A stretch of 64,000 bases of DNA from positions 1 through 64,000 of the IMG/VR virus record IMGVR_UViG_3300027759_000074; one strand, written 5' to 3'. Of this stretch, positions 37,166-62,430 are shown piece after piece. The stretch is from a virus. The translations under genes were made by a program, and so were the position numbers. The notes beneath the pieces are model-generated. The model saw nothing but the letters and a program-made list of their open reading frames with translations. It was not told where the DNA came from and searched no databases. Each line of letters begins with the position of its first letter. Position 1 is the first letter of the stretch.

Positions 37166-37786
37166 ATGTCAAATGAAATATCGAAACAATCAGACGTTAA
37201 TGAGGACGAGCATTTCCATGCGGTTCTTATACCTACCATAGAGAACGACGTCCCAATCCCTAAGAATTCAAAAGAAGCTCTACCTGAAATGACTATTAAT
37301 GAAGAGTTAAACATCAGGGCAGAAACTATAAAAGCAGTAGCAGATATAAAAGGTGAAGACATAAAGCCCACGTACTCTAATATAAAAGACGCAGAAGACC
37401 TAGCAAAAGAAATGATGAAGAACCCTCTACTTAAACCTGAGTTTGATAAGTATCCAAATGAAACGATGGCGTTCTTAGCTGGCTTAGTGGGACAGACTCA
37501 ATGTATGTTAACAGAGCAGTTAGCGGATTTTAAATTGTATGTATTAAATAGACTTGTTGAGATCGTAGAAAAAACTGATAACCCAAAAGAAAAAATAGCA
37601 GCGCTAAGATCTATAGGTGAGATTGATGGCGTCGATGCGTTTAAGAAAAAGACAGAAGTTACGCATAAAGTTGAGTCGATGGAAGAAGTTGAAAAAGAAT
37701 TACTAAGTATGTTAGCTGAGTTAAAAGAGAAAGGCTTAGTTAAAGAAAAAGAAGTGATCGATGCGGAAGTTGTAAAAGATGAGTGA
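37166..37786 (+). CDS. Terminase small subunit (putative)
   Basis: Directly upstream of terL; IAALRSIGEIDGVDAF. Confidence 0.55.
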   Translation: MSNEISKQSDVNEDEHFHAVLIPTIENDVPIPKNSKEALPEMTINEELNIRAETIKAVADIKGEDIKPTYSNIKDAEDLAKEMMKNPLLKPEFDKYPNETMAFLAGLVGQTQCMLTEQLADFKLYVLNRLVEIVEKTDNPKEKIAALRSIGEIDGVDAFKKKTEVTHKVESMEEVEKELLSMLAELKEKGLVKEKEVIDAEVVKDE

Positions 37787-39314
37787 GGAAAAGTTAACGC
37801 CTGAAAAAGTAGCGTTACTAGAAGCAAACTTCTCTGAGTTAACAGATGCACAAAAAGTTAAAGCACTTAATGCACTACGTATATATAAGAAGCATGCAGT
37901 ACAAGAACATGGGGCAGAACATTTTTTAGACTTTATTCAGCATGTATACCCTGGTTACATTATAGGAGACCATCATAGAAAACTTGCAAAAATATTTGAA
38001 GACATTGCTAACGGAAAGAAAAAAAGAGTTATTGTCAACATTGCGCCTCGCCATGGTAAATCGGAACTTATCTCCTATCTTGCGCCAGCATGGTTCCTTG
38101 GTAAATTTCCTCACAAGAAAATTATTATGGCGTCTCACACAGCTGATCTGGCGGTTAACTTTGGCCGTCGTGTGCGTAACTTGGTGGGCAGTGACGCGTA
38201 TAAAGACATTTTTCCGAAAGTAGAGTTACAAGCTGATAGCAAATCCGCATCTCGTTGGGGTACTAATTTTAACGGCGAGTACTTTGCTATCGGTGTTGGG
38301 GGTGCTCTGGCTGGTCGCGGCGCTGATTTGTTTATCATTGACGATCCTCACTCAGAACAGGATGCGAAGACAGGACGTTCGGATATTTTTCTTCCGGCTT
38401 GGGAGTGGTTTCAGTCTGGTCCTATTCAGCGTCTTATGCCAGGTGGAGCTATTATTGTAGTCATGACTCGGTGGAGTAAGCTGGACTTAACGGGACAAAT
38501 CGTTAACCAGATGGTAAAGCAAGAAGGCGTAGATGAATGGGAGCTAGTTGAGTTTCCCGCAATCATTGAAAATAAAGCCGGAGAGGAAGCGTCGCTTTGG
38601 CCTGAGTTTTGGCCGCTTGAAGAATTACAGGCAAAGAAAGCCGCACTAGATATTAGGTATTGGAACGCTCAGTATTTACAAAATCCAGTGTCAGAAGAAG
38701 GTGCACTAATTAAAAGAGAGTGGTGGAAGATGTGGGAGAAAGAAGACCCTCCACATTGTGAGTTTACTATTATGTCGTTAGACGCGGCACAAGAGGCAAA
38801 TACTAGAGCCGACTACAATGCGTTGACTACGTGGGGAGTATTTTTCAACGAAGAAACCAACAATTATAATATAATACTATTAAATTCAATTAAGAAGCGA
38901 CTAGAGTTTCCAGAGCTTAAAGAGCTAGTACTTGAAGAGTACAAAGATTGGGAACCTGACGCATTTATAGTAGAAAAGAAATCTAACGGCGCTGCACTCT
39001 ATCAAGAGATGAGAAGAACAGGTGTGCCACTTGGTGAGTTCACACCAGGCAAAGGACAAGATAAAATTTCTAGGGTTAACGCAGTATCTGACTTATTTAG
39101 AAGTGGTGTGGTTTGGGCTCCTGATAGACGATGGGCTCACGAGGTTATCGAAGAATGTAATGACTTCCCAGCAGGAGCTAATGACGACTTAGTGGACTCA
39201 ACAACCATGGCACTTATGAGGTTCAGACAAGGCGGGTTTATTAGATTACCTAATGATGAGCCTGAAGAGATACAAGGATTTAGAAGTTCTAGAAATAGGT
39301 TGTACGCAGTGTAA
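37779..39314 (+). CDS. terL: Terminase large subunit
   Basis: APRHGKSE Walker A, IIDDP Walker B, RNase H-like SLDAA/DDLVDS. Confidence 0.95.
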   Translation: MSEEKLTPEKVALLEANFSELTDAQKVKALNALRIYKKHAVQEHGAEHFLDFIQHVYPGYIIGDHHRKLAKIFEDIANGKKKRVIVNIAPRHGKSELISYLAPAWFLGKFPHKKIIMASHTADLAVNFGRRVRNLVGSDAYKDIFPKVELQADSKSASRWGTNFNGEYFAIGVGGALAGRGADLFIIDDPHSEQDAKTGRSDIFLPAWEWFQSGPIQRLMPGGAIIVVMTRWSKLDLTGQIVNQMVKQEGVDEWELVEFPAIIENKAGEEASLWPEFWPLEELQAKKAALDIRYWNAQYLQNPVSEEGALIKREWWKMWEKEDPPHCEFTIMSLDAAQEANTRADYNALTTWGVFFNEETNNYNIILLNSIKKRLEFPELKELVLEEYKDWEPDAFIVEKKSNGAALYQEMRRTGVPLGEFTPGKGQDKISRVNAVSDLFRSGVVWAPDRRWAHEVIEECNDFPAGANDDLVDSTTMALMRFRQGGFIRLPNDEPEEIQGFRSSRNRLYAV

Positions 39315-39484: not shown

Positions 39485-42037
39485 ATGGCAGACAATATTG
39501 ATAAAGGGTTATACCAAACTCCACTAGGTTTAGACAAAGAACCAACTATGGCAGATGCAGCGCTTGCTATTGAGATTGAAAATCCAGACAGCGTGACATT
39601 AGATGATGGCAGTATGGAGATTACGCTTGAGCCTGGTAAAGAATATGAAGATGAGTTTAATGATAACTTAGCTGAAGAACTAGATGAAGGCACTTTAACA
39701 GAATTAGCTGGCGATTTAATAGGCGATTTCCAAACAGATATAGAATCAAGAAAAGATTGGCTCAACACTTATGTTGAAGGTCTAGAATTATTAGGTCTTA
39801 AAGTAGAAGACCGAACCGAACCGTGGCCCGGTGCTTGCAATGTATACCATCCCTTAATGACTGAAGCCCTTGTGAAATTCCAAGCGGAAACTATGATGGA
39901 AACTTTCCCTGCAGCTGGCCCAGTAAAAACAGTAATCATAGGTAAACAAACAATAGAAAAAGAACAAGCAGCTGAACGGGTTCGCGATGACATGAACTAT
40001 CAGTTGACTGAAAAAATGCCAGAGTATAGACCTGAACATGAGCGCATGTTATGGGGACTTGGGCTTGCAGGTAACGCATTTAAAAAAGTTTATTATGATC
40101 CGTCATTAAATCGTCAAGTATCTATGTATGTCACTGCAGAAGATATTGTAGTTCCGTATGGCGCGTCTAACTTAGAAACATGTGAGCGTATTACTCATGT
40201 GATGCGAAAAACTAAAAATGAATTAAGAAAACTCATGGTAGCTGGATTCTACAAAGATGTAGATTTAGGTGAACCCTCTCACACAGTTGACGAAGCCGAG
40301 AAAAAGATTGCAGAAAAGATGGGCTTCAATGCGTCTGAAGATGACCGATACAAAATTCTTGAAATGCATGTTAATTTAGATTTAGAAAATGGTGATGACG
40401 AAGATGGTATTGCACTACCTTATGTTGTTACTATTGAACAAGGTACAAGCACAATCTTAGCCATTCGTCGTAATTGGAACCCCGATGATAAGTTAAAATT
40501 AAAACGTCAACACTTTGTACACTACGGTTATATACCAGGCTTTGGTTTCTATTGTTTTGGTTTAATTCATTTGATAGGTGCCTTTGCAAAATCCGGTACT
40601 ATGATCTTACGTCAACTTGTTGATGCAGGTACTTTATCAAATTTACCAGGGGGATTAAAATCTCGCGGTCTTAGAATTAAAGGTGATGATACTCCAATTG
40701 CCCCAGGCGAGTTCCGTGACGTTGATGTACCATCAGGTGCTATCCGTGACAATATCTTACCTCTTCCATATAAAGAACCTTCACAAGTATTAAATAGTTT
40801 GATGAATCAAATCATCGACGAAGGCCGTGCGTTTGCTAATGCAGATGGATTAAAAGTTTCTGATATGTCAGCTAATGCTCCAGTAGGTACAACGTTAGCT
40901 ATTTTAGAAAGAACTCTTAAAGTAATGTCAGCTGTACAAGCTCGTATTTACTACGCGATGAAACAAGAGTTTAAACTTCTTAAAGGCATTATTAGAGATT
41001 ACACTCCTGATGAATATAATTATGAACCTGAAGTAGGTGATAGACGCGCTAAACAATCTGACTACGATAACTGTGATGTTATTCCTGTATCAGATCCAAA
41101 TGCATCAACGATGTCTCAAAAGGTTGTACAGTATCAAGCTGTAATGCAGATGGCGCAAGCTAATCCACAGATCTATGATTTACCTGAGCTTAATAAACAA
41201 ATGCTAGAAGTATTAGGCATTAAAAATATTAACAAGCTTATTCCAAGTGTCGAAGACTTTAAACCAAAAGATCCTGTATCTGAAAATATGGCAATTCTTA
41301 ATGGTAAACCTGTTAAAGCATTTATTTATCAAGACCATCAAGCACATATGACGGTTCATCAATCAGCCATGCAAGATCCTAAGATAATGGAAATGATAGG
41401 ACAAAATCCACAAGCACAATCAATTCAGGCAGCTATGATGGCACATATTAATGAGCACGTAGCATTTGAATATAGAAAACATATTGAAGAACAACTTGGT
41501 GTACCTTTACCTGGTATGGATGAAGTATTACCAGAAGACGTAGAAACAGAAATTTCTAAACTTATGGCCCAAGCTGCACAACAATTATTAGCTAAAGATC
41601 AAGCCGAAGCTCAACAACAACAAGCTGAACAACAGCAACAAGATCCGCTCATTCAAATGCAACAACAAGAATTAGCTATCAAACAACAAGAATCACAAGC
41701 AAAAACGCAAAAAATGATGGCAGATACTCAATTAGATCAACAAAAACTTGAAGCTACTCAAGCGTTAGAGCAACAAAAACTTGAATTAGAAAAAGCTAAA
41801 CTTGAGTTAGAAAAAGCCAAAATGGACTCACAAGAAAGAGTTGCAGGGGCTCATCTAGGGTTTAAATCTGTAATAGATAAACAAAAAATGGAAGCAGAAG
41901 ACCAACGCACTCAAGCACAACAAGCAGCAGAGGGCATGAGGATTGGGTTAGATGCAACTAAATCAGAGTTAGATCGCGAACACGCGATTGAGTTAGCGCA
42001 CATTAATAAAAAGGAACAAAAACAACCCAAGGAGTAA
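39485..42037 (+). CDS. Portal protein
   Basis: 850 aa after terL; P22-like long Gln-rich coiled-coil tail. Confidence 0.85.
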   Translation: MADNIDKGLYQTPLGLDKEPTMADAALAIEIENPDSVTLDDGSMEITLEPGKEYEDEFNDNLAEELDEGTLTELAGDLIGDFQTDIESRKDWLNTYVEGLELLGLKVEDRTEPWPGACNVYHPLMTEALVKFQAETMMETFPAAGPVKTVIIGKQTIEKEQAAERVRDDMNYQLTEKMPEYRPEHERMLWGLGLAGNAFKKVYYDPSLNRQVSMYVTAEDIVVPYGASNLETCERITHVMRKTKNELRKLMVAGFYKDVDLGEPSHTVDEAEKKIAEKMGFNASEDDRYKILEMHVNLDLENGDDEDGIALPYVVTIEQGTSTILAIRRNWNPDDKLKLKRQHFVHYGYIPGFGFYCFGLIHLIGAFAKSGTMILRQLVDAGTLSNLPGGLKSRGLRIKGDDTPIAPGEFRDVDVPSGAIRDNILPLPYKEPSQVLNSLMNQIIDEGRAFANADGLKVSDMSANAPVGTTLAILERTLKVMSAVQARIYYAMKQEFKLLKGIIRDYTPDEYNYEPEVGDRRAKQSDYDNCDVIPVSDPNASTMSQKVVQYQAVMQMAQANPQIYDLPELNKQMLEVLGIKNINKLIPSVEDFKPKDPVSENMAILNGKPVKAFIYQDHQAHMTVHQSAMQDPKIMEMIGQNPQAQSIQAAMMAHINEHVAFEYRKHIEEQLGVPLPGMDEVLPEDVETEISKLMAQAAQQLLAKDQAEAQQQQAEQQQQDPLIQMQQQELAIKQQESQAKTQKMMADTQLDQQKLEATQALEQQKLELEKAKLELEKAKMDSQERVAGAHLGFKSVIDKQKMEAEDQRTQAQQAAEGMRIGLDATKSELDREHAIELAHINKKEQKQPKE

Positions 42038-42040
42038 CAT

Positions 42041-42235
42041 ATGGACCAAACGCTAGAGCTATTATTGTCTCGAATAGATGATCAGCGCAAAACAGTATTA
42101 ATAAATTTAGGAGACGGAGCCGCAAAAGATTTTGCTTCGTACCAAAATATGACAGGGTATATTCGAGGTCTATCCGTCGCAGAAAGTATCATAAAAGACC
42201 TTGCACAAAGAATGGAGACGTTTGAAGATGAGTGA
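42041..42235 (+). CDS. Hypothetical protein
   Basis: Y..GYIRGL motif; AAGGAG RBS. Confidence 0.6.
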   Translation: MDQTLELLLSRIDDQRKTVLINLGDGAAKDFASYQNMTGYIRGLSVAESIIKDLAQRMETFEDE

Positions 42236-42674
42236 ACAAATACTCACAATAAATAAGAATTTGGTAGATGCAAATGGTCGACCGATTGTTGTTCCAAAGA
42301 TAGACGATGTAAATGCAGAAGACATACCGATTGAAGAACGTGGTTTACAGTTGCCTGAGCCTAAAGGATACAAGATACTTTGTGCAATTCCTGACGCCGC
42401 AGAAACTTATCAAGGGGGTATTGTAAAAGCAGATTCAACTAGAACTGTAGAAGAACATTCAACTGTAGTTTTATTTGTAGTAAGAGTAGGTGATTTAGCT
42501 TATAAAGACGAGGCTAGATTTCCTACAGGTCCATGGTGTAAAGAGGGTGATTTTGTTTTGACACGTGCATACGCAGGTACAAGATTTAAAATCCACGGAA
42601 GAGAATTCCGCATTATTAACGACGATACAGTCGAGGGGGTTGTTGAAGATCCTCGTGGCTATACTCGCGCATAA
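42228..42674 (+). CDS. groES: GroES-like co-chaperonin
   Basis: PKGYKIL..GGIV..VGDLAY..GDFV..YAGT..RIINDDTV. Confidence 0.8.
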   Translation: MSEQILTINKNLVDANGRPIVVPKIDDVNAEDIPIEERGLQLPEPKGYKILCAIPDAAETYQGGIVKADSTRTVEEHSTVVLFVVRVGDLAYKDEARFPTGPWCKEGDFVLTRAYAGTRFKIHGREFRIINDDTVEGVVEDPRGYTRA

Positions 42675-42684
42675 GGAGAACTAA

Positions 42685-43722
42685 ATGGCTGAGAACAAAG
42701 AAACCGAGATAATCTTTGAATATCCCGATGACAATGAAATTTCAGGTAATAAACTACCTGATGAAAAAGAAGTCAACGTAGAGACAAAACAAGTTGAGTC
42801 TAAAGAAAACGAAACAAAAGTAGACGCTAAGGTTGATGATTTTGACCTTGAGATAGAAGATGATACACCTGCACAAGATAGAAATCGAGAGCCTTTACCT
42901 AAAGAGGTAGTAGAGGAATTAGAAAACGATAATCTTGATGACTATTCTGAAAGAGTTAAACAGCGTTTATCTCAGATGAAAAAAGTTTGGCATGATGAAA
43001 GACGCGCTAAAGAACAGGCTGATAGAGAACGAGAAGAAGCAATTCGATTTGCTCAACAAATTTCTCATGAAAATAATAAACTAAAAACTACACTAAGTAA
43101 CGGAGAAGAAGACTACGTAAAAACAGTCTACTCTGCAGTAGAACAACAGTTTAGTATGGCCCAAAGAGATTATCGCGACGCATATGAATCTGGTGACACT
43201 GATAAAATTTTAAATGCTCAAACTAGAATGAATGACGCACAACTTAGGCTGTCTCAAATTCAAAATTATACGCCTCAATTTAGAAATACTTTACAAGAGC
43301 CTGAAAATAATGTATATATACCACAATCACAGCCTCAAGTACCAAAACCTGATAATCGAGCCTTAAAATGGCAAGAAAAGAATGATTGGTTCGGTTCTGA
43401 TGAGGAAATGACAAGCCTTGCATTAGGCTTACATGAGAAATTAGTTAGGAGTGGTATAAACCCCACATCTGACGAATATTATCGTCGTATCGATGGTACG
43501 ATGCAGAAACGATTCCCAGAATACTTTGGGGATGCAACGCTGGACGAGGTTCAACCCGCCCAACGCACAAAACCTTCGACTGTAGTTGCCCCGGCAACGC
43601 GTAGCACCGCGCCAAAAAAAGTGCGTCTGACGAAGACACAAGTAGCGTTAGCCAAGAAATTTGGTCTAACACCGGAGCAATATGCAAGAGAAACTTTAAA
43701 ATTGGAGAGAACAAATGGATAA
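42685..43722 (+). CDS. Capsid scaffolding protein (putative)
   Basis: Acidic coiled coil; C-terminal LAKKFGLTPEQYA. Confidence 0.6.
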   Translation: MAENKETEIIFEYPDDNEISGNKLPDEKEVNVETKQVESKENETKVDAKVDDFDLEIEDDTPAQDRNREPLPKEVVEELENDNLDDYSERVKQRLSQMKKVWHDERRAKEQADREREEAIRFAQQISHENNKLKTTLSNGEEDYVKTVYSAVEQQFSMAQRDYRDAYESGDTDKILNAQTRMNDAQLRLSQIQNYTPQFRNTLQEPENNVYIPQSQPQVPKPDNRALKWQEKNDWFGSDEEMTSLALGLHEKLVRSGINPTSDEYYRRIDGTMQKRFPEYFGDATLDEVQPAQRTKPSTVVAPATRSTAPKKVRLTKTQVALAKKFGLTPEQYARETLKLERTNG

Positions 43723-44161
43723 AAGAATAGATCGTGAAGTAGATACAAGAGATGATTTTACTCGTGGAGAAAGCTGGAAACCCGCCTCACTCCTACCTGA
43801 ATTTAAAAAGGTACCAGGCTGGGCATATCGATGGATCAGAACAAGTGTCATGAACGAAGCAGACAATCTAAATGTATCCTCTAAAATGCGTGAAGGTTGG
43901 GAACCCGTTAAATTAGCGGACCATCCTGAAATGAAACTAATGGTTGACCAAGCATCTCGCTTTAAAGACGGGATTGAAATTGGTGGACTATTATTATGCA
44001 AGATCCCAGAAGAGTTTGTTGCACAACGTAAGGCTCATTATGCTACACAAGCAAAACAACAAGCCGATGCAGTTGACAACAGCTTTATGAAACAAAGTGA
44101 TGCTCGTATGCCTCTCTTCGCAGAGTCAAAATCTACGACATCTTTTGGTAAAGGTAAATAA
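43715..44161 (+). CDS. Conserved head-module protein
   Basis: YRWIR..REGWEPV..GGLLLCKIP. Confidence 0.6.
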   Translation: MDKRIDREVDTRDDFTRGESWKPASLLPEFKKVPGWAYRWIRTSVMNEADNLNVSSKMREGWEPVKLADHPEMKLMVDQASRFKDGIEIGGLLLCKIPEEFVAQRKAHYATQAKQQADAVDNSFMKQSDARMPLFAESKSTTSFGKGK

Positions 44162-44182
44162 TATAAATATAAGGAGATTACT

Positions 44183-44782
44183 ATGTCATATCCAACAGTA
44201 ACCGCTCCATACGGACTTAGACCAATTAACCGTTTCGACGGCATGCCATATGCAGGTGCTACTAATCAGTACCCTGTAACATCTGGTCAAGCTGTTTTTA
44301 ACGGTCAAGTAGTTGCATTCGTAAATGGCGGTACAGTATCACCAGTAGCATCTCACACAGCTAGTACTTATGCTGTAGGTGTTGTAATGGGTGTTCAATA
44401 CACAAACTCAACGGGTCAAACAGTGCAAGCTCAATATGCACCTTCATCAGGCGTAACAGATGTTATTGCTTATGTTGTAAATGATCCTGCTGCAGAGTTT
44501 AAAGTAGCAGTTACAGGTAATAATCAAACGATTACTCCAGTAGCAGGCACTGTTTTAAACACAAACGTTTTATTAGTAGTAGGTACAGGAGACACAGCAA
44601 CAGGTAATATTAATTCATCTATTGATGGTTCTTCTGCTAACAGTACTGCTACATCAATATTTAGAGTTACTGCTCTTATTCCAGAAACTATCGATCCAAC
44701 AACTGGTTATTACACAGAAGTTGTCGTTAAATTTAACGGAACATGGCATCAACAATTATCAACAACCGGTACTACAACTTAA
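44183..44782 (+). CDS. Capsid decoration/cement protein (putative)
   Basis: APYGLRP N-terminus, beta-rich, directly upstream of the MCP. Confidence 0.55.
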   Translation: MSYPTVTAPYGLRPINRFDGMPYAGATNQYPVTSGQAVFNGQVVAFVNGGTVSPVASHTASTYAVGVVMGVQYTNSTGQTVQAQYAPSSGVTDVIAYVVNDPAAEFKVAVTGNNQTITPVAGTVLNTNVLLVVGTGDTATGNINSSIDGSSANSTATSIFRVTALIPETIDPTTGYYTEVVVKFNGTWHQQLSTTGTTT

Positions 44783-44794
44783 GGAGAATAAAAC

Positions 44795-45712
44795 ATGGCT
44801 ATTTCACGCGCACAGCTCCTTAAGGAGCTCTTACCAGGACTAAATGCACTATTTGGTCTAGAGTATAAACGTTACGGCGAAGAACATAAAGAAGTTTATG
44901 AAACAGAGACTTCAGAGCGTTCATTCGAAGAAGAAACAAAACTTTCAGGTTTCTCAGCAGCACCAGTCAAAAACGAAGGCACTGCAATCGCTTATGACAA
45001 TGCTCAAGAAGCTTGGACAGCTCGATACAATCATCAAACTATTGCTCTTGGCTTCAGCTTAACTGAAGAAGCTGTAGAAGATAACTTGTATGATACATTA
45101 TCAGCACGTTACACAAAGGCTTTAGCTCGCGCTATGGCTTACACAAAACAAGTTAAGGCTGCTGCAGTTCTTAATAATGGTTTCAATACTTCCGGTGCTT
45201 ATGACGGTGGTGATGGTGTATCATTATTTAACACGGCTCATCCTCTTGTTTCAGGCGGTACAAACAGCAACACTCAATCAACTCCAACAGACTTGAACGA
45301 AACAGCACTAGAAAACGCTGTTATTCAAATCGCTGCATGGACTGATGAACGTGGTCTTTTGATTGCTGCTCAACCACGTAAGTTAGTAGTTCCACCAGGT
45401 AATCAATTCGTTGCAACTCGCTTGCTCGAAACTGAATTACGTGTTGGCACAACAGACAACGACATCAACGCTATTAAGAATAATGGTTCAATCCCAGAAG
45501 GTTACACAATTAACCACTTCTTAACAGATCCTGATGCGTATTTCTTAACAACTGATGTACCTAACGGCATGAAACACTTTGTGCGTACTCCGTTATCTAC
45601 TTCTATGGATGGCGATTTTGACACAGGCAATGTTAGATACAAAGCTCGTGAGCGTTATTCATTCGGTTGGTCAGATCCTCTCGGTATGTGGGGTTCACCA
45701 GGTTCTGCTTAA
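44795..45712 (+). CDS. Major capsid protein (Mu gpT-like)
   Basis: MAISRAQLLKELLPGLNALFG; DGVSLF..HP; PRKLVVP; RYKARERY. Confidence 0.85.
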   Translation: MAISRAQLLKELLPGLNALFGLEYKRYGEEHKEVYETETSERSFEEETKLSGFSAAPVKNEGTAIAYDNAQEAWTARYNHQTIALGFSLTEEAVEDNLYDTLSARYTKALARAMAYTKQVKAAAVLNNGFNTSGAYDGGDGVSLFNTAHPLVSGGTNSNTQSTPTDLNETALENAVIQIAAWTDERGLLIAAQPRKLVVPPGNQFVATRLLETELRVGTTDNDINAIKNNGSIPEGYTINHFLTDPDAYFLTTDVPNGMKHFVRTPLSTSMDGDFDTGNVRYKARERYSFGWSDPLGMWGSPGSA

Positions 45713-45742
45713 TAGCGACTTGGTTCACAATGTACTAGGATT

Positions 45743-45765
45743 AACCCTGCTTCGGCGGGGTTTTT
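45743..45765 (+). terminator. Rho-independent terminator after the MCP
   Basis: AACCCTGC-TTCG-GCGGGGTT followed by a U-run. Confidence 0.85.
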
Positions 45766-45823
45766 CTTTATGAGCCGCTCATGGTTTTCTTTACAACGGT
45801 TTAAATTGCAAAAAGAGCATAAT

Positions 45824-45877
45824 ATGCATAACAAAGTAGTTTGTGTATAACAAATGCAAGACAAAGTACTTTGTGTA
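45824..45877. promoter_or_regulatory. Tandem operator-like palindromes upstream of pqqA
   Basis: 24-nt direct repeat (21/24 identical), period 30; cores ACAAAGTAGTTTGT and perfect ACAAAGTACTTTGT. Confidence 0.5.
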
Positions 45878-45918
45878 GTAAAAAACAAGAAATATTATAT
45901 ACAAACTAGGAGAATATT

Positions 45919-45990
45919 ATGTGGACAACACCAGCTGCAACAGAAATGAGATTTGGCTTTGAAGTAACTATGTACGTAATGAATAAGTAA
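45919..45990 (+). CDS. pqqA: PQQ precursor peptide PqqA (23 aa, not in track)
   Basis: MWTTPAATEMRFGFEVTMYVMNK: W-x-x-P and RFGFEVTMY with E-x-x-x-Y; AGGAG RBS at 45908-45912. Confidence 0.95.
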   Translation: MWTTPAATEMRFGFEVTMYVMNK

Positions 45991-46019
45991 TGGTTTTTGT
46001 AACAGATTGCTATTAAACT

Positions 46020-46040
46020 AAGGGGCTTCGGCCCCTTTTT
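46020..46040 (+). terminator. Rho-independent terminator after pqqA
   Basis: AAGGGGC-TTCG-GCCCCTT followed by TTT. Confidence 0.85.
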
Positions 46041-46042
46041 AC

Positions 46043-46070
46043 TTGTGTAAAATCTATATTGTGGTATTAT
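46043..46070 (+). promoter_or_regulatory. Promoter candidate
   Basis: TTGTGT-N16-TATTAT with an extended -10 TG. Confidence 0.45.
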
Positions 46071-46078
46071 TGCAGTAT

Positions 46079-46152
46079 CCGGGCATATCCGGTTTATTAG
46101 ACTGTCCCGGCAGATGCATACACAACTAATAAACTTAACTTTGTATGAAGGA
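46079..46152 (+). ncRNA. Pseudoknotted structured RNA (possibly Mu-gpT-DE-like)
   Basis: Interleaved pairings CCGGG/CCCGG, GTTTATTAG/CTAATAAAC, CATACA/TGTATG. Confidence 0.55.
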
Positions 46153-46160
46153 AAATTATT

Positions 46161-46592
46161 ATGGCTATATCTACAGCTTCAGGCCCATGGCGCTCGCTTA
46201 CGGGTTTTATCGTTCCAATCACTTACGTTTATGCAACTGACATTGTTGGTGGCGAATATCAAATTCAAGATGCAGGCGCTAGAGTTTTAGTTCTATCACC
46301 AGCCGATGGTGGTCCAGCTTCAGCAGTTGACTTTATTCTTCCTAACGTTGTAACAAATGATGGTAATGCATGGGTAGGTCCTCAATCTGCTCAACCAGAA
46401 CTTAATGGCGTTCAAGGCTCAATTACTAACTACGGCGCAGTTGCTCACGTACTAAAAGGTACTGGCACACAACCTGTATCGGGTAACGTTGCTGGTGTAA
46501 CAGTTGCTGCTGGATCTATTGTTCAATGGGGTGGTAACGGTAATCCGAATGCTCCTTGGATCGCAATTAACAACGCTATCTTAGCTTCCTAA
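46161..46592 (+). CDS. Putative virion protein
   Basis: AAGGA RBS; SGPWRSLTGF N-terminus. Confidence 0.55.
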   Translation: MAISTASGPWRSLTGFIVPITYVYATDIVGGEYQIQDAGARVLVLSPADGGPASAVDFILPNVVTNDGNAWVGPQSAQPELNGVQGSITNYGAVAHVLKGTGTQPVSGNVAGVTVAAGSIVQWGGNGNPNAPWIAINNAILAS

Positions 46593-46601
46593 TTAAACTC
46601 T

Positions 46602-46621
46602 GGGGGCGCTTAGCCCCCTTC
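46602..46621 (+). terminator. Hairpin / weak terminator
   Basis: GGGGGC-gctta-GCCCCC with a short U tract. Confidence 0.45.
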
Positions 46622-46642
46622 TAAAACTTAAGGAGATTAATT

Positions 46643-46927
46643 ATGATGCAAACAGACATATTAGCCACACATTTAAATGCTGATGGAGTAGTAGCTGCGT
46701 ATCCTGTACGTGTTAAAGGATATCAAATTAAACCTGGTGGTACTGCAGGACAAATTGATTTTTACGATAACGCATCAGCAGCTTCAGGCACTATTAGACT
46801 ATCACTAGACATTACAACAAACACTGTAGTTGTTTCTACAATACTTCCAGGTGAAGGCATTAGATTTAATAATGGTGTTTATGTAGATTTACCCGCCAGC
46901 GCAGGTATAACAGTATTCTATGGCTAA
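46643..46927 (+). CDS. Putative virion protein
   Basis: PGEGIRF..GVY..TVFYG. Confidence 0.55.
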   Translation: MMQTDILATHLNADGVVAAYPVRVKGYQIKPGGTAGQIDFYDNASAASGTIRLSLDITTNTVVVSTILPGEGIRFNNGVYVDLPASAGITVFYG

Positions 46928-47183
46928 CAAGAAAAAAGGTCCTAGCTTAGCAGTTGGACGTGGTGAGAAACTTCCTGTATCGAAAGGTGCAGGTCTTACC
47001 GCTAAAGGACGTGCAAAGTATAACGCAGCTACAGGCTCAAACCTCAAGGCTCCTCAGCCACAAGGTGGCGCTCGTAAGAAGTCGTTTTGTGCTAGGATGT
47101 CTGGTATGCCCGGTCCTATGAAAGATGAAAAAGGTAGACCTACTAGGAAAGCCGCATCACTAAAAAGGTGGAATTGTAAATGA
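46920..47183 (+). CDS. Small basic conserved phage protein
   Basis: GLTAKGRAKYN..RKKSFCARM..RWNC. Confidence 0.6.
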   Translation: MANKKKGPSLAVGRGEKLPVSKGAGLTAKGRAKYNAATGSNLKAPQPQGGARKKSFCARMSGMPGPMKDEKGRPTRKAASLKRWNCK

Positions 47184-57583: not shown

Positions 57584-58438
57584 ATGGCACAAATTATTCT
57601 AGATTCTAATAATAACTTAATACAAGGTGACTTTGATAACGCCACGTTAAACAATCGTACTAAGTTACAAACCACAACAACTAATGCCACGACTAACGTG
57701 TACATAGCTCCTAACGGCTCATCTACATCTGCCGGTGTTTCAGTCGCTAATAACTCAAGTCTTACTAATGCATCTAAGATTGTCATGGCTACAAACGGCA
57801 CAACAGATACACAAATTATTTCTGGTATAAATGGGTCTGGTACTTATTTACCTTTGAGTTTTTATACGAACAATGCTTTGGCGATGCAAATTGATACGGC
57901 TAATAATGTGTTGGTAGGAACTACAACAGCTAATGCAAGAATAACATCACAATCGTCAAATAACAACGCATCTTCATTTGCGTTATGGTGTATGAACAGT
58001 TCATCAACACAACTTTTAAAAGTGCGAGATGACGGTTTGATTGAAACTGGAACAGCTACAAACTCTCCATATAACTATACAACTGGTTCAGCGGCTAATA
58101 CATTTATAAATTCCAGCGGACAATTTCAACGTTCAACATCGTCATTAAAATATAAACAAAATGTACAAGATGCAACACACGGTTTAAGTGATGTATTAAA
58201 ACTTCGCCCTGTTACGTTTACAAGTAAAAATGATGAATCAGGCACAATATTTGGTGGTTTAATTGCAGAAGAAGTTCACGAAGCTGGATTAACTGAATTT
58301 GTGCAATATTCAGAAGACGGTAGTCCAGATGCTTTGGCTTATGCAAATATGGTTTCACTTTTAACAAAAGCCATACAAGAACAACAAACCATTATCAACG
58401 AATTAAAATCAAGAATAGAAGCTTTGGAGAGTAAATAA
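57584..58438 (+). CDS. Tail fibre with peptidase S74 intramolecular chaperone
   Basis: TSSLKYKQNV..LRPVTF..GLIAEEV..C-terminal coiled coil. Confidence 0.8.
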   Translation: MAQIILDSNNNLIQGDFDNATLNNRTKLQTTTTNATTNVYIAPNGSSTSAGVSVANNSSLTNASKIVMATNGTTDTQIISGINGSGTYLPLSFYTNNALAMQIDTANNVLVGTTTANARITSQSSNNNASSFALWCMNSSSTQLLKVRDDGLIETGTATNSPYNYTTGSAANTFINSSGQFQRSTSSLKYKQNVQDATHGLSDVLKLRPVTFTSKNDESGTIFGGLIAEEVHEAGLTEFVQYSEDGSPDALAYANMVSLLTKAIQEQQTIINELKSRIEALESK

Positions 58439-59730
58439 TGTCCTCACTCATTTTAGGCGGAGATACCTCAGGAACCATAACGTTAACAGTGCCAGCTACC
58501 GCTGGTACAAATACTATAACGCTTCCAGCGTCTACCGGTACTGCGATTACTACAGCGTCAACATCAGGTGTACCTAATACAATCAACTGGACAACAGTAC
58601 AAACAACGAGTGTAAGCCCAGCGGTAGCAGGTACAGGTTACCCAATGAACACAACAAGCGGTGCTCTCACCGTGACATTACCAGCAAGCCCAACTGCAGG
58701 TAACTTAATTTCTATAGTAGACTACGCAGGAACAGCGGCTACAAATAATATAACGATCAATCCAAACGGCTTAAAAATAAATGGCGGTACTGCTAATGCT
58801 TTAATTTCAGTAAATCGTGAAGCTATTAATTTAGTTTATGTAGATAGTACTCAAGGCTGGTTAGCTTATGCTGATGTTTATTCTACAACTTCTCCTTTAC
58901 CTCAACCTTATACAGCTTCTTATTTAGTAGTAGCTGGCGGTGGCGGTGGTGGTTCAAGAGTTGGTGGAGGTGGAGGTGCTGGGGGTGTAGTATCAGGAAC
59001 AATAACCTTAAATCCCAATACTGTTTATACTGCTGTGGTAGGTGGAGGTGCAGCAGGTCAGGCTCAAACACCAGCAGGGAATAAAGGATCAAGCGGATCT
59101 AATTCTACATTCCCAGGGGTTACTACTGCTTTAGGCGGAGGTGGTGGTACAGGATTTAATCAAGGAGCAGCTGTATCAGGAGGTTCTGGTGGCGGTGGTG
59201 GTTCAGGTGAAAATGGTTCTACACCAGCACCAGGTGCAGCAGGTACTCCAGGTCAAGGTAATGGCGGAGGTACTGGTGCAGGTCCATTATGGGCTGCCGG
59301 TGGTGGCGGTGGAGCTGGCGCTGTTGGAGGAAACGGAACATCTGGTACAATTGGTGGTGCAGGTGGTGCAGGGCTAGCTTCCTCTATTACAGGATCCTCA
59401 GTAATATATGGTGGCGGCGGCGGAGCTAATGCTGATTCTGCTGGCGGTTTAGGAGGTCCAGGAACACCAGGAGTTTCTGGTGGTAACGGCTCACCAGGAC
59501 CAAGTACACCTCTTGCGGCTGCTAATAATGGAGTTGTTAATACTGGCGGTGGCGGTGGTGGTATAGGCACAACTGGACCTAGTACAAGTTCAGGTGGTTC
59601 AGGCGTAGTCATACTTTCTGTTCCCACAGCTAATTATTCTGGTACGACAACAGGTTCACCTACAATTACAACATCAGGTGCAAACACAATTATTAAATAT
59701 ACATCTGGTTCAGGAACTTACACAGCATAA
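58438..59730 (+). CDS. Gly-rich adhesin / tail protein, paralogue 1
   Basis: ASYLVVAGGG...GSGVVILSVPT. Confidence 0.7.
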   Translation: MSSLILGGDTSGTITLTVPATAGTNTITLPASTGTAITTASTSGVPNTINWTTVQTTSVSPAVAGTGYPMNTTSGALTVTLPASPTAGNLISIVDYAGTAATNNITINPNGLKINGGTANALISVNREAINLVYVDSTQGWLAYADVYSTTSPLPQPYTASYLVVAGGGGGGSRVGGGGGAGGVVSGTITLNPNTVYTAVVGGGAAGQAQTPAGNKGSSGSNSTFPGVTTALGGGGGTGFNQGAAVSGGSGGGGGSGENGSTPAPGAAGTPGQGNGGGTGAGPLWAAGGGGGAGAVGGNGTSGTIGGAGGAGLASSITGSSVIYGGGGGANADSAGGLGGPGTPGVSGGNGSPGPSTPLAAANNGVVNTGGGGGGIGTTGPSTSSGGSGVVILSVPTANYSGTTTGSPTITTSGANTIIKYTSGSGTYTA

Positions 59731-61013
59731 TGGCTTCTTTCATTGTTTACGGTGACGCGTCAGGTCAGGTTACAGTTAAAGCTCCTGCTGTTGCAGGGAC
59801 AAACACAATCACGTTCCCAGCTGAAACAGGTACACTTTATACATCAGCGTCAACATCGTACCTAAATGGTCAAATCGCATGGGACACAACAGTCAAAACA
59901 GCAGGGTTCACAGCGGTAGCCTATGGCGGTTATTTTTGTAATACAGCAAATGCAGCGTTTACAGTAACCCTACCCGCAACACCTTCTCGTGGTCAGTTTG
60001 TAGTCATTGTTGACTATGCAGGAACAAGTGCGACTAATAATATAACTGTAAGCCCTAACGGCGGAAAAATAAATGGACTAACAGGTAATGCGAGTATGAA
60101 TACAAATAGACAAGGCATTACATTTACCTATATCGATTCAACACAAGGTTGGTTATCTACAAGCAACGTTTATGGTGGTAATCCTCCTTTTACAAGAGCT
60201 TATACTGCTTCTTATTTAGTTGTAGCTGGTGGCGCATCGGGAGGAACAGCAGCTTCTGGACTATGGGAAACTGGAGGTGGTGGTGGAGCTGGAGGTTATA
60301 TAACAGGAACTACATCTTTAAATATTGGAACTGTTTATACAGCTGTAGTAGGTGGCGGTGGATCAGCGGTTTCTAGTAGTTCTAGTGGTAACAATGGTAG
60401 CAGCAGTCAATTTGATACAGTCTCCGCAACAGGCGGCGGCGGCGGCGGTGGTGGTAATGCCACACCTCGGATTGCAAAATCAGGAGGGTCAGGCGGCGGC
60501 GGGTCTGGATATGATTTTAGAGATGGAGGAGCAGGAACACCTGGACAAGGTTTTGCTGGAGGAAGTGGATATGCAGATGGTGGTGGTGGAAATGCTGGTG
60601 GCGGTGGCGGCGGTGGATCTAGTGCTGTAGGTAATAATGCTACAAATGCAAATGGAGCAACAGGCGGTGCTGGAACAGCATCTTCTATAACTGGAGCTTC
60701 AGTAACTTATGCTGGCGGAGGGGGCGGTGCAGGGGGTAACAACTCAGGATCAGGTGGTGCTGGAGGCTCAGGTGGCGGCGGTGCAGGTGCCGTAGGTGGA
60801 ACAGCTACTTCAGGTACTGCTAATACAGGAGGTGGTGGCGGAGGTAATTCAAGATCAGGAACTAGCGGCGCTGGTGGATCAGGCGTTGTTATTATAAGCG
60901 TTCCCACTGCATCATATTCAGGTACAACTACAGGAAGCCCTACAATAACTACATCAGGAAGTAATACTATAATTAAATGGACTACCGCAGGTAGTGGAAC
61001 TTACACAGCATAG
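59730..61013 (+). CDS. Gly-rich adhesin / tail protein, paralogue 2
   Basis: Same framework. Confidence 0.7.
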   Translation: MASFIVYGDASGQVTVKAPAVAGTNTITFPAETGTLYTSASTSYLNGQIAWDTTVKTAGFTAVAYGGYFCNTANAAFTVTLPATPSRGQFVVIVDYAGTSATNNITVSPNGGKINGLTGNASMNTNRQGITFTYIDSTQGWLSTSNVYGGNPPFTRAYTASYLVVAGGASGGTAASGLWETGGGGGAGGYITGTTSLNIGTVYTAVVGGGGSAVSSSSSGNNGSSSQFDTVSATGGGGGGGGNATPRIAKSGGSGGGGSGYDFRDGGAGTPGQGFAGGSGYADGGGGNAGGGGGGGSSAVGNNATNANGATGGAGTASSITGASVTYAGGGGGAGGNNSGSGGAGGSGGGGAGAVGGTATSGTANTGGGGGGNSRSGTSGAGGSGVVIISVPTASYSGTTTGSPTITTSGSNTIIKWTTAGSGTYTA

Positions 61014-61021
61014 GATATAAT

Positions 61022-61312
61022 ATGGCTAAAATGACTATAGAAGAACTTATAAAAGAATTTAGTAACGAACAAGGTTTTCAATTTGGTATTGACATTGTGA
61101 TGAAGTCATTAAGACCAGGTGCACTTTACGGCTTATCAGCCTCTGGAGGTACTTTTGAAATCGTATCGTGGGATGAATCAAACACAGAACCAGCGCCGTC
61201 ATCACAAGAAATACGAGATGAATATATTCGTCACCAAACCATTAAAGAATTTATAGAGTTTATGGAACAAGCAAAGCTAAATAAAAAATCAAGAGTTAGG
61301 AAAACTGCTTAA
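61022..61312 (+). CDS. Tail-fibre assembly-like (XkdW-like) protein
   Basis: SLRPGA..W..P.PS..EI. Confidence 0.4.
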   Translation: MAKMTIEELIKEFSNEQGFQFGIDIVMKSLRPGALYGLSASGGTFEIVSWDESNTEPAPSSQEIRDEYIRHQTIKEFIEFMEQAKLNKKSRVRKTA

Positions 61313-62430
61313 TGGCTATTGTAATAGACTCGCTTAAAGGTATTACCCAAGCTGGCTGGACTACAGCAGGTCGCCCTGCCACACCTAGTGCTGGACAAGT
61401 AGGCTTTAATACATCGTTAAATGCGTTTGAACAATATAATGGTACAGGCTGGGCTACAATCTCATCATGGACAACAGCAAATAGACCTGTCACACCCGTA
61501 GCTGGATTTAGTGGATTTAACACTACACTTTTAGCTTTTGAATTTTACAATGGAAGTACTTGGATTGGAGTTGATTCTAGTATCCTTGCTCCTGTTACTG
61601 CTAGTTATTTAGTTGTAGCCGGTGGTGCTGCTGGTGGATCAGGTGACTCAGCAACTAGTGGCGCATTTAGATCTGGCGGCGGCGGTGGCGCGGGAGGATA
61701 TTTAACTGGTACTACATCTTTAACTATAGGAGTTGTTTATACAGCTGTAGTAGGTGGCGGCGGTGCTGCAGGAACAACTGGTGGAAATGGAAACGTAGGA
61801 ACAGCCTCTACAATTAGTGGATCAGGTTTTACTACAATAACAGCATCTGGCGGTGGATACGGCGGTGGATATGCAAATGCTGGAGGATCTGGTGGGTCTG
61901 GCGGCGGTGGTGGAGGTAATAATCAATCGGGAGCAGCTGGAACCCCGGGACAAGGAAATTCGGGTAGTAATGGGGCTAATCCAGGCGGAGGAGCTGGTGG
62001 AGGTGGTGGAGGTGGATCTGCATCTGCTGGAGTAACCCCTGGTACTGTTGGTAACGGAGGTAATGCCACTGCTAACTCTATTACAGGAACCCCTGCTTTT
62101 TATGCTGGTGGTGGTGGTGGTGGCGCGGGAGCAGCTCCTAGTACTCCAGGTTTAGGCGGTCCAGGTACTCCAGGTGTTTCAGGCGGTAATGGACCAGGCA
62201 ATGCTGACGGAACTGCTGGAATTGCAAATACAGGTGGCGGTGGAGGAGGCGGATGTACTTACTTCCCTGCATTAAAAGTTGGAGGTGCCGGCGGTTCTGG
62301 TGTAGTTATTCTTTCAGTACCAACATCCAAATATACAGGCACTACTACAGGCAGCCCAACAGTAACAACTAGTGGAGCAAATACGATTATTAAATGGACC
62401 ACTGCTGGTTCAGGAACTTACACAGCTTAA
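61312..62430 (+). CDS. Gly-rich adhesin / tail protein, paralogue 3
   Basis: Two WTTAxRP..YNG repeats plus the Gly-rich domain. Confidence 0.7.
   Translation: MAIVIDSLKGITQAGWTTAGRPATPSAGQVGFNTSLNAFEQYNGTGWATISSWTTANRPVTPVAGFSGFNTTLLAFEFYNGSTWIGVDSSILAPVTASYLVVAGGAAGGSGDSATSGAFRSGGGGGAGGYLTGTTSLTIGVVYTAVVGGGGAAGTTGGNGNVGTASTISGSGFTTITASGGGYGGGYANAGGSGGSGGGGGGNNQSGAAGTPGQGNSGSNGANPGGGAGGGGGGGSASAGVTPGTVGNGGNATANSITGTPAFYAGGGGGGAGAAPSTPGLGGPGTPGVSGGNGPGNADGTAGIANTGGGGGGGCTYFPALKVGGAGGSGVVILSVPTSKYTGTTTGSPTVTTSGANTIIKWTTAGSGTYTA

Follow-up and report, generated by a model that had tools for sequence, protein, structure and literature searches.

The open reading frame (ORF) of 72 nucleotides that follows the major capsid gene of this virus is confirmed as a genuine pqqA gene, and it is probably an auxiliary metabolic gene with which a lytic-type freshwater Methylophilaceae phage supplies the single-use precursor of the redox cofactor PQQ to the PqqB-E enzymes of its host. 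Viral copies of pqqA are common and were already reported in 2020. What is added here is the position of the gene after an HTVC023P/027P-like capsid gene, with clear insertion boundaries, together with the host-type design of the cassette and its pattern of presence and absence within the capsid lineage.

Identity of the pqqA gene

The ORF lies at 45919..45990 on the plus strand of the window, by which we mean the whole stretch of 64,000 nucleotides that was analysed (positions 1 to 64,000 of the IMG/VR virus record IMGVR_UViG_3300027759_000074). It starts with ATG, consists of 23 codons plus TAA and translates to MWTTPAATEMRFGFEVTMYVMNK, exactly as an earlier note, made from the letters of this DNA alone, had given it. 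The strong ribosome-binding site mentioned in that note is a Shine-Dalgarno sequence, AGGAG, at 45908-45912 (+), 6 nt 5' of the ATG, and the upstream gene that it had called the major capsid gene (44795..45712, +) matches PHROG 371 (major head protein, E 4.7e-22) and lies directly 5' of the cassette. Chance short ORFs are plentiful around pqqA (94 of at least 20 amino acids in 6 kb). The identity as PqqA, for which a profile search had been suggested, was borne out by both curated PqqA models, whose cut-offs MWTTPAATEMRFGFEVTMYVMNK exceeded about twofold: Pfam PF08042 gave 40.3 bits against a cut-off of 21.1 (E 3e-10) and NCBIfam TIGR02107 gave 38.8 bits against 20 (E 5.6e-10), while a six-frame search of the genome returned a PqqA score of 36.4 bits. 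The Glu-X3-Tyr cross-link motif near the PqqA C-terminus reads E15-V-T-M-Y19, with the codons of Glu15 at 45961-45963 and of Tyr19 at 45973-45975 (+). The leader MWTTPAAT is the same as that of the host's own PqqA, and from this identity PqqD would be expected to recognize the phage leader.

Phage genome

The phage is a complete 78-kb phage of lytic type; the window is part of a 78,363-bp IMG/VR virus record to which CheckV assigns 100% completeness and whose G+C content is 39.9%. Besides the capsid protein, the window encodes a large terminase (37779-39314), a portal protein (39485-42037), a family A DNA polymerase, an SNF2 helicase, a DUF927 primase-like protein and a PD-(D/E)XK nuclease, as well as virion, ejection and tail-fibre-like proteins. 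Viral genes flank pqqA, the capsid gene on its 5' side and virion genes on its 3' side, and it sits inside a bona fide viral genome. By blastn, the capsid gene matches the annotated capsid genes of the pelagiphages HTVC027P and HTVC023P, and it has at least 600 relatives in IMG/VR. A GroES-like co-chaperonin ORF (42201-42674; PHROG 3188, E 1.6e-9) lies between the portal and head genes. Three successive ORFs of 430, 427 and 372 amino acids (58438-62430) all match PHROG 2295 with tail-fibre-like N-terminal parts, and they look like tandem paralogous receptor-binding or fibre proteins.

Searches for the remainder of the PQQ pathway were negative. The earlier note had seen no pqqB-E in the window, and this absence extends to the whole 78,363-bp record, in which neither tblastn with host proteins (their identity confirmed by NCBIfam) nor profile searches for PqqE and PqqD detected pqqB, C, D or E; none of these genes is present at 126 other viral loci either. 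The phage record encodes no PQQ-dependent dehydrogenase, methanol dehydrogenase included, and no peptide deformylase. No tyrosine or serine integrase was detected in the 78,363-bp record, and a search for tRNAs as host clues found none.

Host and host pqqA genes

When the core EMRFGFEVTMYV was searched for as a degenerate DNA pattern, at least 120 stretches matched in IMG/VR and at least 120 in species-representative bacterial genomes. The bacterial matches listed are almost all from Methylophilaceae (Methylotenera, Methylophilus, Methylovorus, Methylobacillus, Ca. Methylopumilus and OM43). The likeness to Methylophilaceae PqqA that the earlier note had drawn proved to be an identity, the window's exact 23-aa peptide being the commonest variant in both sets of matches listed (27 of 120 viral and 57 of 126 bacterial copies). 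Methylophilaceae are obligate or restricted methylotrophs. The prediction of a methylotroph host likewise stands, given that the core among the matches listed is almost confined to this family and that the cultured phages carrying pqqA all infect Methylophilales. The sequencing runs containing DNA of the phage are labelled lake water or freshwater metagenomes, which together with the Methylophilaceae peptide points to a freshwater member of this family as the host. At the level of the 72-nt DNA the signal stops short of a genus, the nearest bacterial pqqA copies (67 of 72 nt identical) coming from several genera.

Among the listed bacterial copies, pqqBCDE directly follows pqqA in only about 17 of 126 and the others stand alone, so that adjacency to pqqBCDE is not a family-defining trait in this host group. 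In the 1.3-Mb genome of Ca. Methylopumilus universalis, pqqE is accompanied by three dispersed stand-alone pqqA copies, all of them far from it, and two further Methylophilaceae chromosomes contain four and five pqqA copies. These multiple host copies suggest that precursor dosage matters. A host without pqqBCDE would have spoken against the interpretation in the earlier note; the candidate hosts have pqqE, the complete pqqBCDE row having been confirmed in Methylophilaceae OrH-2 only. Some Methylophilaceae contigs (L167, L143, L175 and L195) carry two pqqA units 150-1200 bp apart. In L167 (6000-6217), a Methylobacillus MAG, the leader of one of the two is a variant of phage type, MWTQPQAT, and its surroundings are AT-rich; this copy may be prophage-borne or a tandem duplicate.

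Anatomy of the cassette

The pqqA ORF lies between two intrinsic terminators on the plus strand, in a region with four terminator-like sites against 0.4 expected. The upstream one (45743..45769; stem 45743-45762, 8 bp with 5 GC pairs, plus a T-run) closes the capsid transcript and is present only in pqqA-bearing relatives (alignment A1). The downstream one, found in the terminator scan (46020..46042; stem 46020-46037, then a T-run), ends the pqqA unit and is the terminator of its own that the earlier note had ascribed to the gene. Rfam searches over 45650-46250 returned sub-threshold terminator-like matches only.

Two elements precede the 5' untranslated region (UTR). One, CATGGTTTTC (45780..45789, +), is a variant of the TCATGAAAATCATGA-type motif that emerged from k-mer enrichment and is a candidate promoter or regulator site; a CATG(G/A)TTTTC motif is found upstream of pqqA both in the window (45780-45789) and in its relatives. 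The other, AAAGAGCATAAT (45812..45823, +), contains a -10-like CATAAT (45818-45823) and recurs 5' of pqqA in related contigs. It is the candidate promoter of the cassette, and a promoter scan of the plus strand upstream of pqqA found no canonical sigma-70 -35/-10 pair. A wider role of AAAGAGCATAAT as a general late promoter was rejected, the pqqA site being its sole exact copy in the 78-kb genome; with up to two mismatches, 6 occurrences were counted versus 13.6 expected. As regards moron-type features, the insertion and the unit's own terminator are present, and the promoter side consists only of the -10-like box and the shared upstream motif.

Host and viral pqqA units have a common upstream motif and 5' hairpins. 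K-mer enrichment found ATCATGA in 65 of 115 bacterial pqqA upstream regions versus 3 expected, and on the viral side ACCATGA, AAACCAT and AAAATCA each in 25-35 of 113 upstream regions versus 1-10 expected, together with AAGGAGA in 57 of the 113 versus 2 expected. Where relatives of the phage have one or two 5'-UTR hairpins, two are predicted on the plus strand of the window, ACAAAGTAGTTTGT at 45831-45844 and ACAAAGTACTTTGT at 45861-45874, and the fold of 45819-45905 has an energy of -16.3 kcal/mol (z = -4.2). The best perfect 5'-UTR stem averages 5.8 bp in 20 lineage members versus 3.96 +/- 0.22 bp in shuffled sequences, and the stems of these members, though similarly placed, have more than 10 different sequences. 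Because the position is kept while the stem sequences vary, RNA structure is more likely than a protein operator here. The palindromes ACAAAGTAnTTTGT were accordingly dropped as operator candidates, as relatives keep a hairpin at this place with many different stem sequences. Across the whole set, the minimum free energy z of the 5' UTR was -1.28 versus -0.80 in an upstream control region, a difference that is not decisive, and the stem-length test is the clearer one.

The design of the cassette closely follows that of the stand-alone pqqA units of Methylophilaceae (PF08042/TIGR02107), with which it shares the identical 23-aa peptide, the absence of an adjacent pqqB, a TCATGAAAATCAT-type motif, a -10-like box, a 5' hairpin, a ribosome-binding site, the ORF and an intrinsic terminator. 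Unlike these host units, the phage copy has the capsid gene on one side and the next late gene on the other, its flanks show no similarity in DNA to bacterial loci, and its upstream region is more compact with a duplicated hairpin.

Further downstream, the 5' UTR (46076-46160) of the next ORF (46161-46592) is up to 88% identical at the DNA level in capsid relatives with and without pqqA. RNAalifold on 22 sequences of this segment predicted a helix GTTTATTA/TAATAAAC with compensatory changes in 7 of 16 predicted pairs, and its segments CCGGG, CCGG and CCCGG co-vary (CCAGG/CCTGG/CCTGG in the relatives L252 and L255), which suggests alternative pairings. It matched no Rfam family.

Insertion and distribution among capsid relatives

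About 19 pqqA-bearing contigs are related to the phage (capsid identity 77-96%), and in all of them pqqA directly follows the capsid gene. When relatives were sampled via the capsid protein (84-96% identity), pqqA was found after the capsid gene in 4 of 69, and it is therefore dispensable for this phage type as such. In the relatives without pqqA, the capsid stop codon is followed by one terminator only, the counterpart of that at 46020-46042; in the window, about 300 bp are inserted as a discrete block between the capsid stop codon and this original terminator, and the block brings the extra terminator with it (alignment A1). No DNA similarity was found by blastn between the cassette flanks and bacterial pqqA loci, which argues that the cassette, though host-like in design, is not a recent capture. 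The presence of pqqA on the capsid tree requires 3 changes versus 12.2 in shuffles, a value as low being reached in 0 of 500 shuffles, with the proviso that carriers and non-carriers were drawn from different searches and that sampling is uneven; 11 of 13 carriers fall in one weakly supported group.

Viral pqqA elsewhere and selection on the peptide

At least 120 contigs in IMG/VR contain pqqA, and all cultured Methylophilales phages in the GenBank phage set carry it (P19250A, MEP301, Venkman, MEP401, MEP402 and four Melnitz isolates). These isolates are of unrelated morphotypes, and the PqqA peptide of P19250A is 100% identical to that of the window. They share with the window phage the 23-codon ORF, the same core, the intergenic gap and a ribosome-binding site of its own, but they are other phage types in which pqqA lies near recombination or early genes, whereas in the window phage it follows the HTVC023P/027P-like capsid gene. 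Recombinase genes occur nearby in some pqqA-carrying siphoviruses. In the records of cultured phages the gene is unannotated, labelled 'hypothetical' or overlapped by a coding sequence on the wrong strand; individual cases of pqqA left unannotated, called 'hypothetical' or placed under a spurious opposite-strand coding sequence are MW202481.1 (2067-2195), Melnitz MZ577095-98 and the Manatee Spring podovirus. Weak PqqA-like tblastn matches (72% over 18 aa, E 0.09) were also seen in sequences labelled 'Acinetobacter phage MD-2021a' (CAKLQF020000010.1, 108210-108263, and CAKLQH020000055.1, 419-472), which may mean that pqqA also occurs, in a phage or a prophage, beyond the methylotrophs.

A second scan of IMG/VR, in which the leader alone was constrained, returned 121 matches, all 121 of them intact ORFs with Glu-X3-Tyr, and the only changes in their cores were F/Y, V/I and M/L. 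In 109 unique viral DNA sequences, Glu15 and Tyr19 are invariant although the scan left the core unconstrained, and the Tyr19 codon is TAC 56 times and TAT 53 times. Over codons 11-23 of these 109 sequences, pS is 0.71 and pN 0.057. A pN/pS of 0.08 with synonymous sites near saturation indicates strong purifying selection, in several phage lineages, on the peptide and not on the DNA.

Function and alternative explanations

Binding by PqqD and cross-linking by PqqE, with PqqB and PqqC completing PQQ, is an established pathway according to the references given in PMC7678222. In the mechanism that we propose, host RNA polymerase would transcribe a short, stable, hairpin-protected mRNA from the pqqA unit, host PqqD would bind the phage peptide and PqqE would cross-link Glu15 to Tyr19, after which PqqB and PqqC would mature the cross-linked peptide into PQQ. 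One peptide being used per PQQ, the phage copy would keep up the supply of precursor as host expression declines, and the sustained PQQ would maintain methanol dehydrogenase (XoxF/MxaF) activity and hence energy for phage production.

The earlier note had offered both substrate supply and a decoy for PqqD/E. We infer that supply is the best-fitting reading, supported by a host-identical peptide in a phage without pqqB-E, and of the two readings it alone is supported. A decoy or inhibitor would bind PqqD/PqqE unproductively and shut down host PQQ synthesis, which agrees with a phage that carries the peptide alone and no processing genes; a difference at reactive or recognition residues would, however, be expected, and all host residues are kept in a peptide identical to functional host PqqA, just as Glu15 and Tyr19 never vary among the 109 unique viral sequences, whose remaining core substitutions are all conservative. 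With no residue that sets the peptide apart from working host PqqA, the decoy reading fails, and we regard it as extremely improbable. Just as improbable is a role at the DNA level, in which the 72 nt would serve without coding as attP-like homology for integration or recombination with host pqqA copies, of which hosts have 3-5, dispersed and 85-93% identical in DNA; the recombinase genes near pqqA in some siphoviruses also fit such a role. It fails because synonymous sites are nearly saturated, the opposite of what selection on DNA sequence would leave while the peptide is kept, and because the record has no tyrosine or serine integrase, and a unit with a complete ORF, ribosome-binding site and terminator likewise speaks against it.

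The absence of pqqA from 65 of the 69 close capsid relatives could mean that it is a neutral passenger, i.e. captured host DNA that is neither expressed nor useful. Metatranscriptome contigs gave no RNA support for the cassette: on 43700-47000, the contigs of four lake metatranscriptomes extend over the capsid gene and neighbouring genes and leave 45698-45919 bare and 45920-46030 nearly bare, but such contigs, of sequence repeated in many phages and hosts, are uninformative on expression and cannot demonstrate its absence. Selection and recurrence defeat this reading, which we consider very unlikely: every copy in the leader-only scan is intact under a low pN/pS, all cultured Methylophilales phages have the gene even though their morphotypes are unrelated, and the same site is kept in lineage members whose capsids have diverged to 77-96% identity. 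PqqA might also be supplied for a purpose other than methanol oxidation, be it a different periplasmic dehydrogenase that depends on PQQ or the use of PQQ as a redox protectant. A methanol dehydrogenase gene is absent from the phage, and a 2026 survey that lists viral pqqA among the viral genes of reservoir sediments places it under phosphate solubilization via glucose dehydrogenase (PMC13188868). Against this stand the near-restriction of the core to Methylophilaceae among the matches listed and the isolate hosts, all of which are methylotrophs, and we therefore judge such a purpose to be unlikely.

Taking substrate supply for the methanol pathway as the preferred reading, a broader proposal can be made more tentatively. 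It is conceivable, though we would sooner doubt it than adopt it, that pqqA is a near-universal hallmark of Methylophilaceae phages, carried as a host-type unit with a TCATGAAAATCAT-like site and a 5'-terminal stabilizing hairpin that would plug into host pqqA regulation, and that precursor supply is the rate-limiting step of PQQ synthesis targeted by phages.

Relation to earlier work and significance

The novelty that the earlier note claimed for a viral PqqA was overrated, as viral PqqA has been in print since 2020 (PMC7678222) and appeared again in 2026 (PMC13188868). The first report concerned viruses from Lake Baikal that were predicted to infect methylotrophs, population VP_266 (Coutinho et al., 2020, Microbiome 8:163, PMC7678222). 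VP_266 resembles the present case as a PqqA precursor in an uncultured freshwater virus of predicted methylotrophs that was read as an auxiliary metabolic gene, and differs from it in that its representative also has a methanol dehydrogenase and a peptide deformylase, both of which the window phage lacks (PMC7678222). The account of VP_266 given there contains no cassette anatomy, selection analysis or statement on cultured isolates. Full-text searches found no literature linking pqqA to cultured Methylophilales phages, and the paper on the Melnitz isolates names PQQ only as a medium component. With the concept in print since 2020, the value of the present analysis is in breadth and anatomy, not in discovery.

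Cyanophage psbA, one of the classical auxiliary genes that phages carry singly, duplicates a host component with rapid turnover and has been proposed to keep energy metabolism running. The viral pqqA may be comparable in that it, too, would duplicate something that the host uses up quickly and would serve energy metabolism in infection. Unlike psbA, its product is a sacrificial peptide substrate and not an enzyme or structural subunit, and the function of psbA has been demonstrated while that of viral pqqA is so far proposed.

These results bear on both the annotation and the biology of methylotroph phages. The 72-nt gene was missed in every deposited isolate genome that was checked, which amounts to a systematic annotation gap, and pqqA can serve as a simple marker, readable from sequence, of phages whose hosts are Methylophilaceae (OM43, LD28 and relatives). 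If its function is confirmed, this would be an example in which what the phage provides is a sacrificial peptide substrate instead of an enzyme, and it would suggest that PqqA supply is a bottleneck of the methanol-driven energy metabolism of abundant aquatic methylotrophs.
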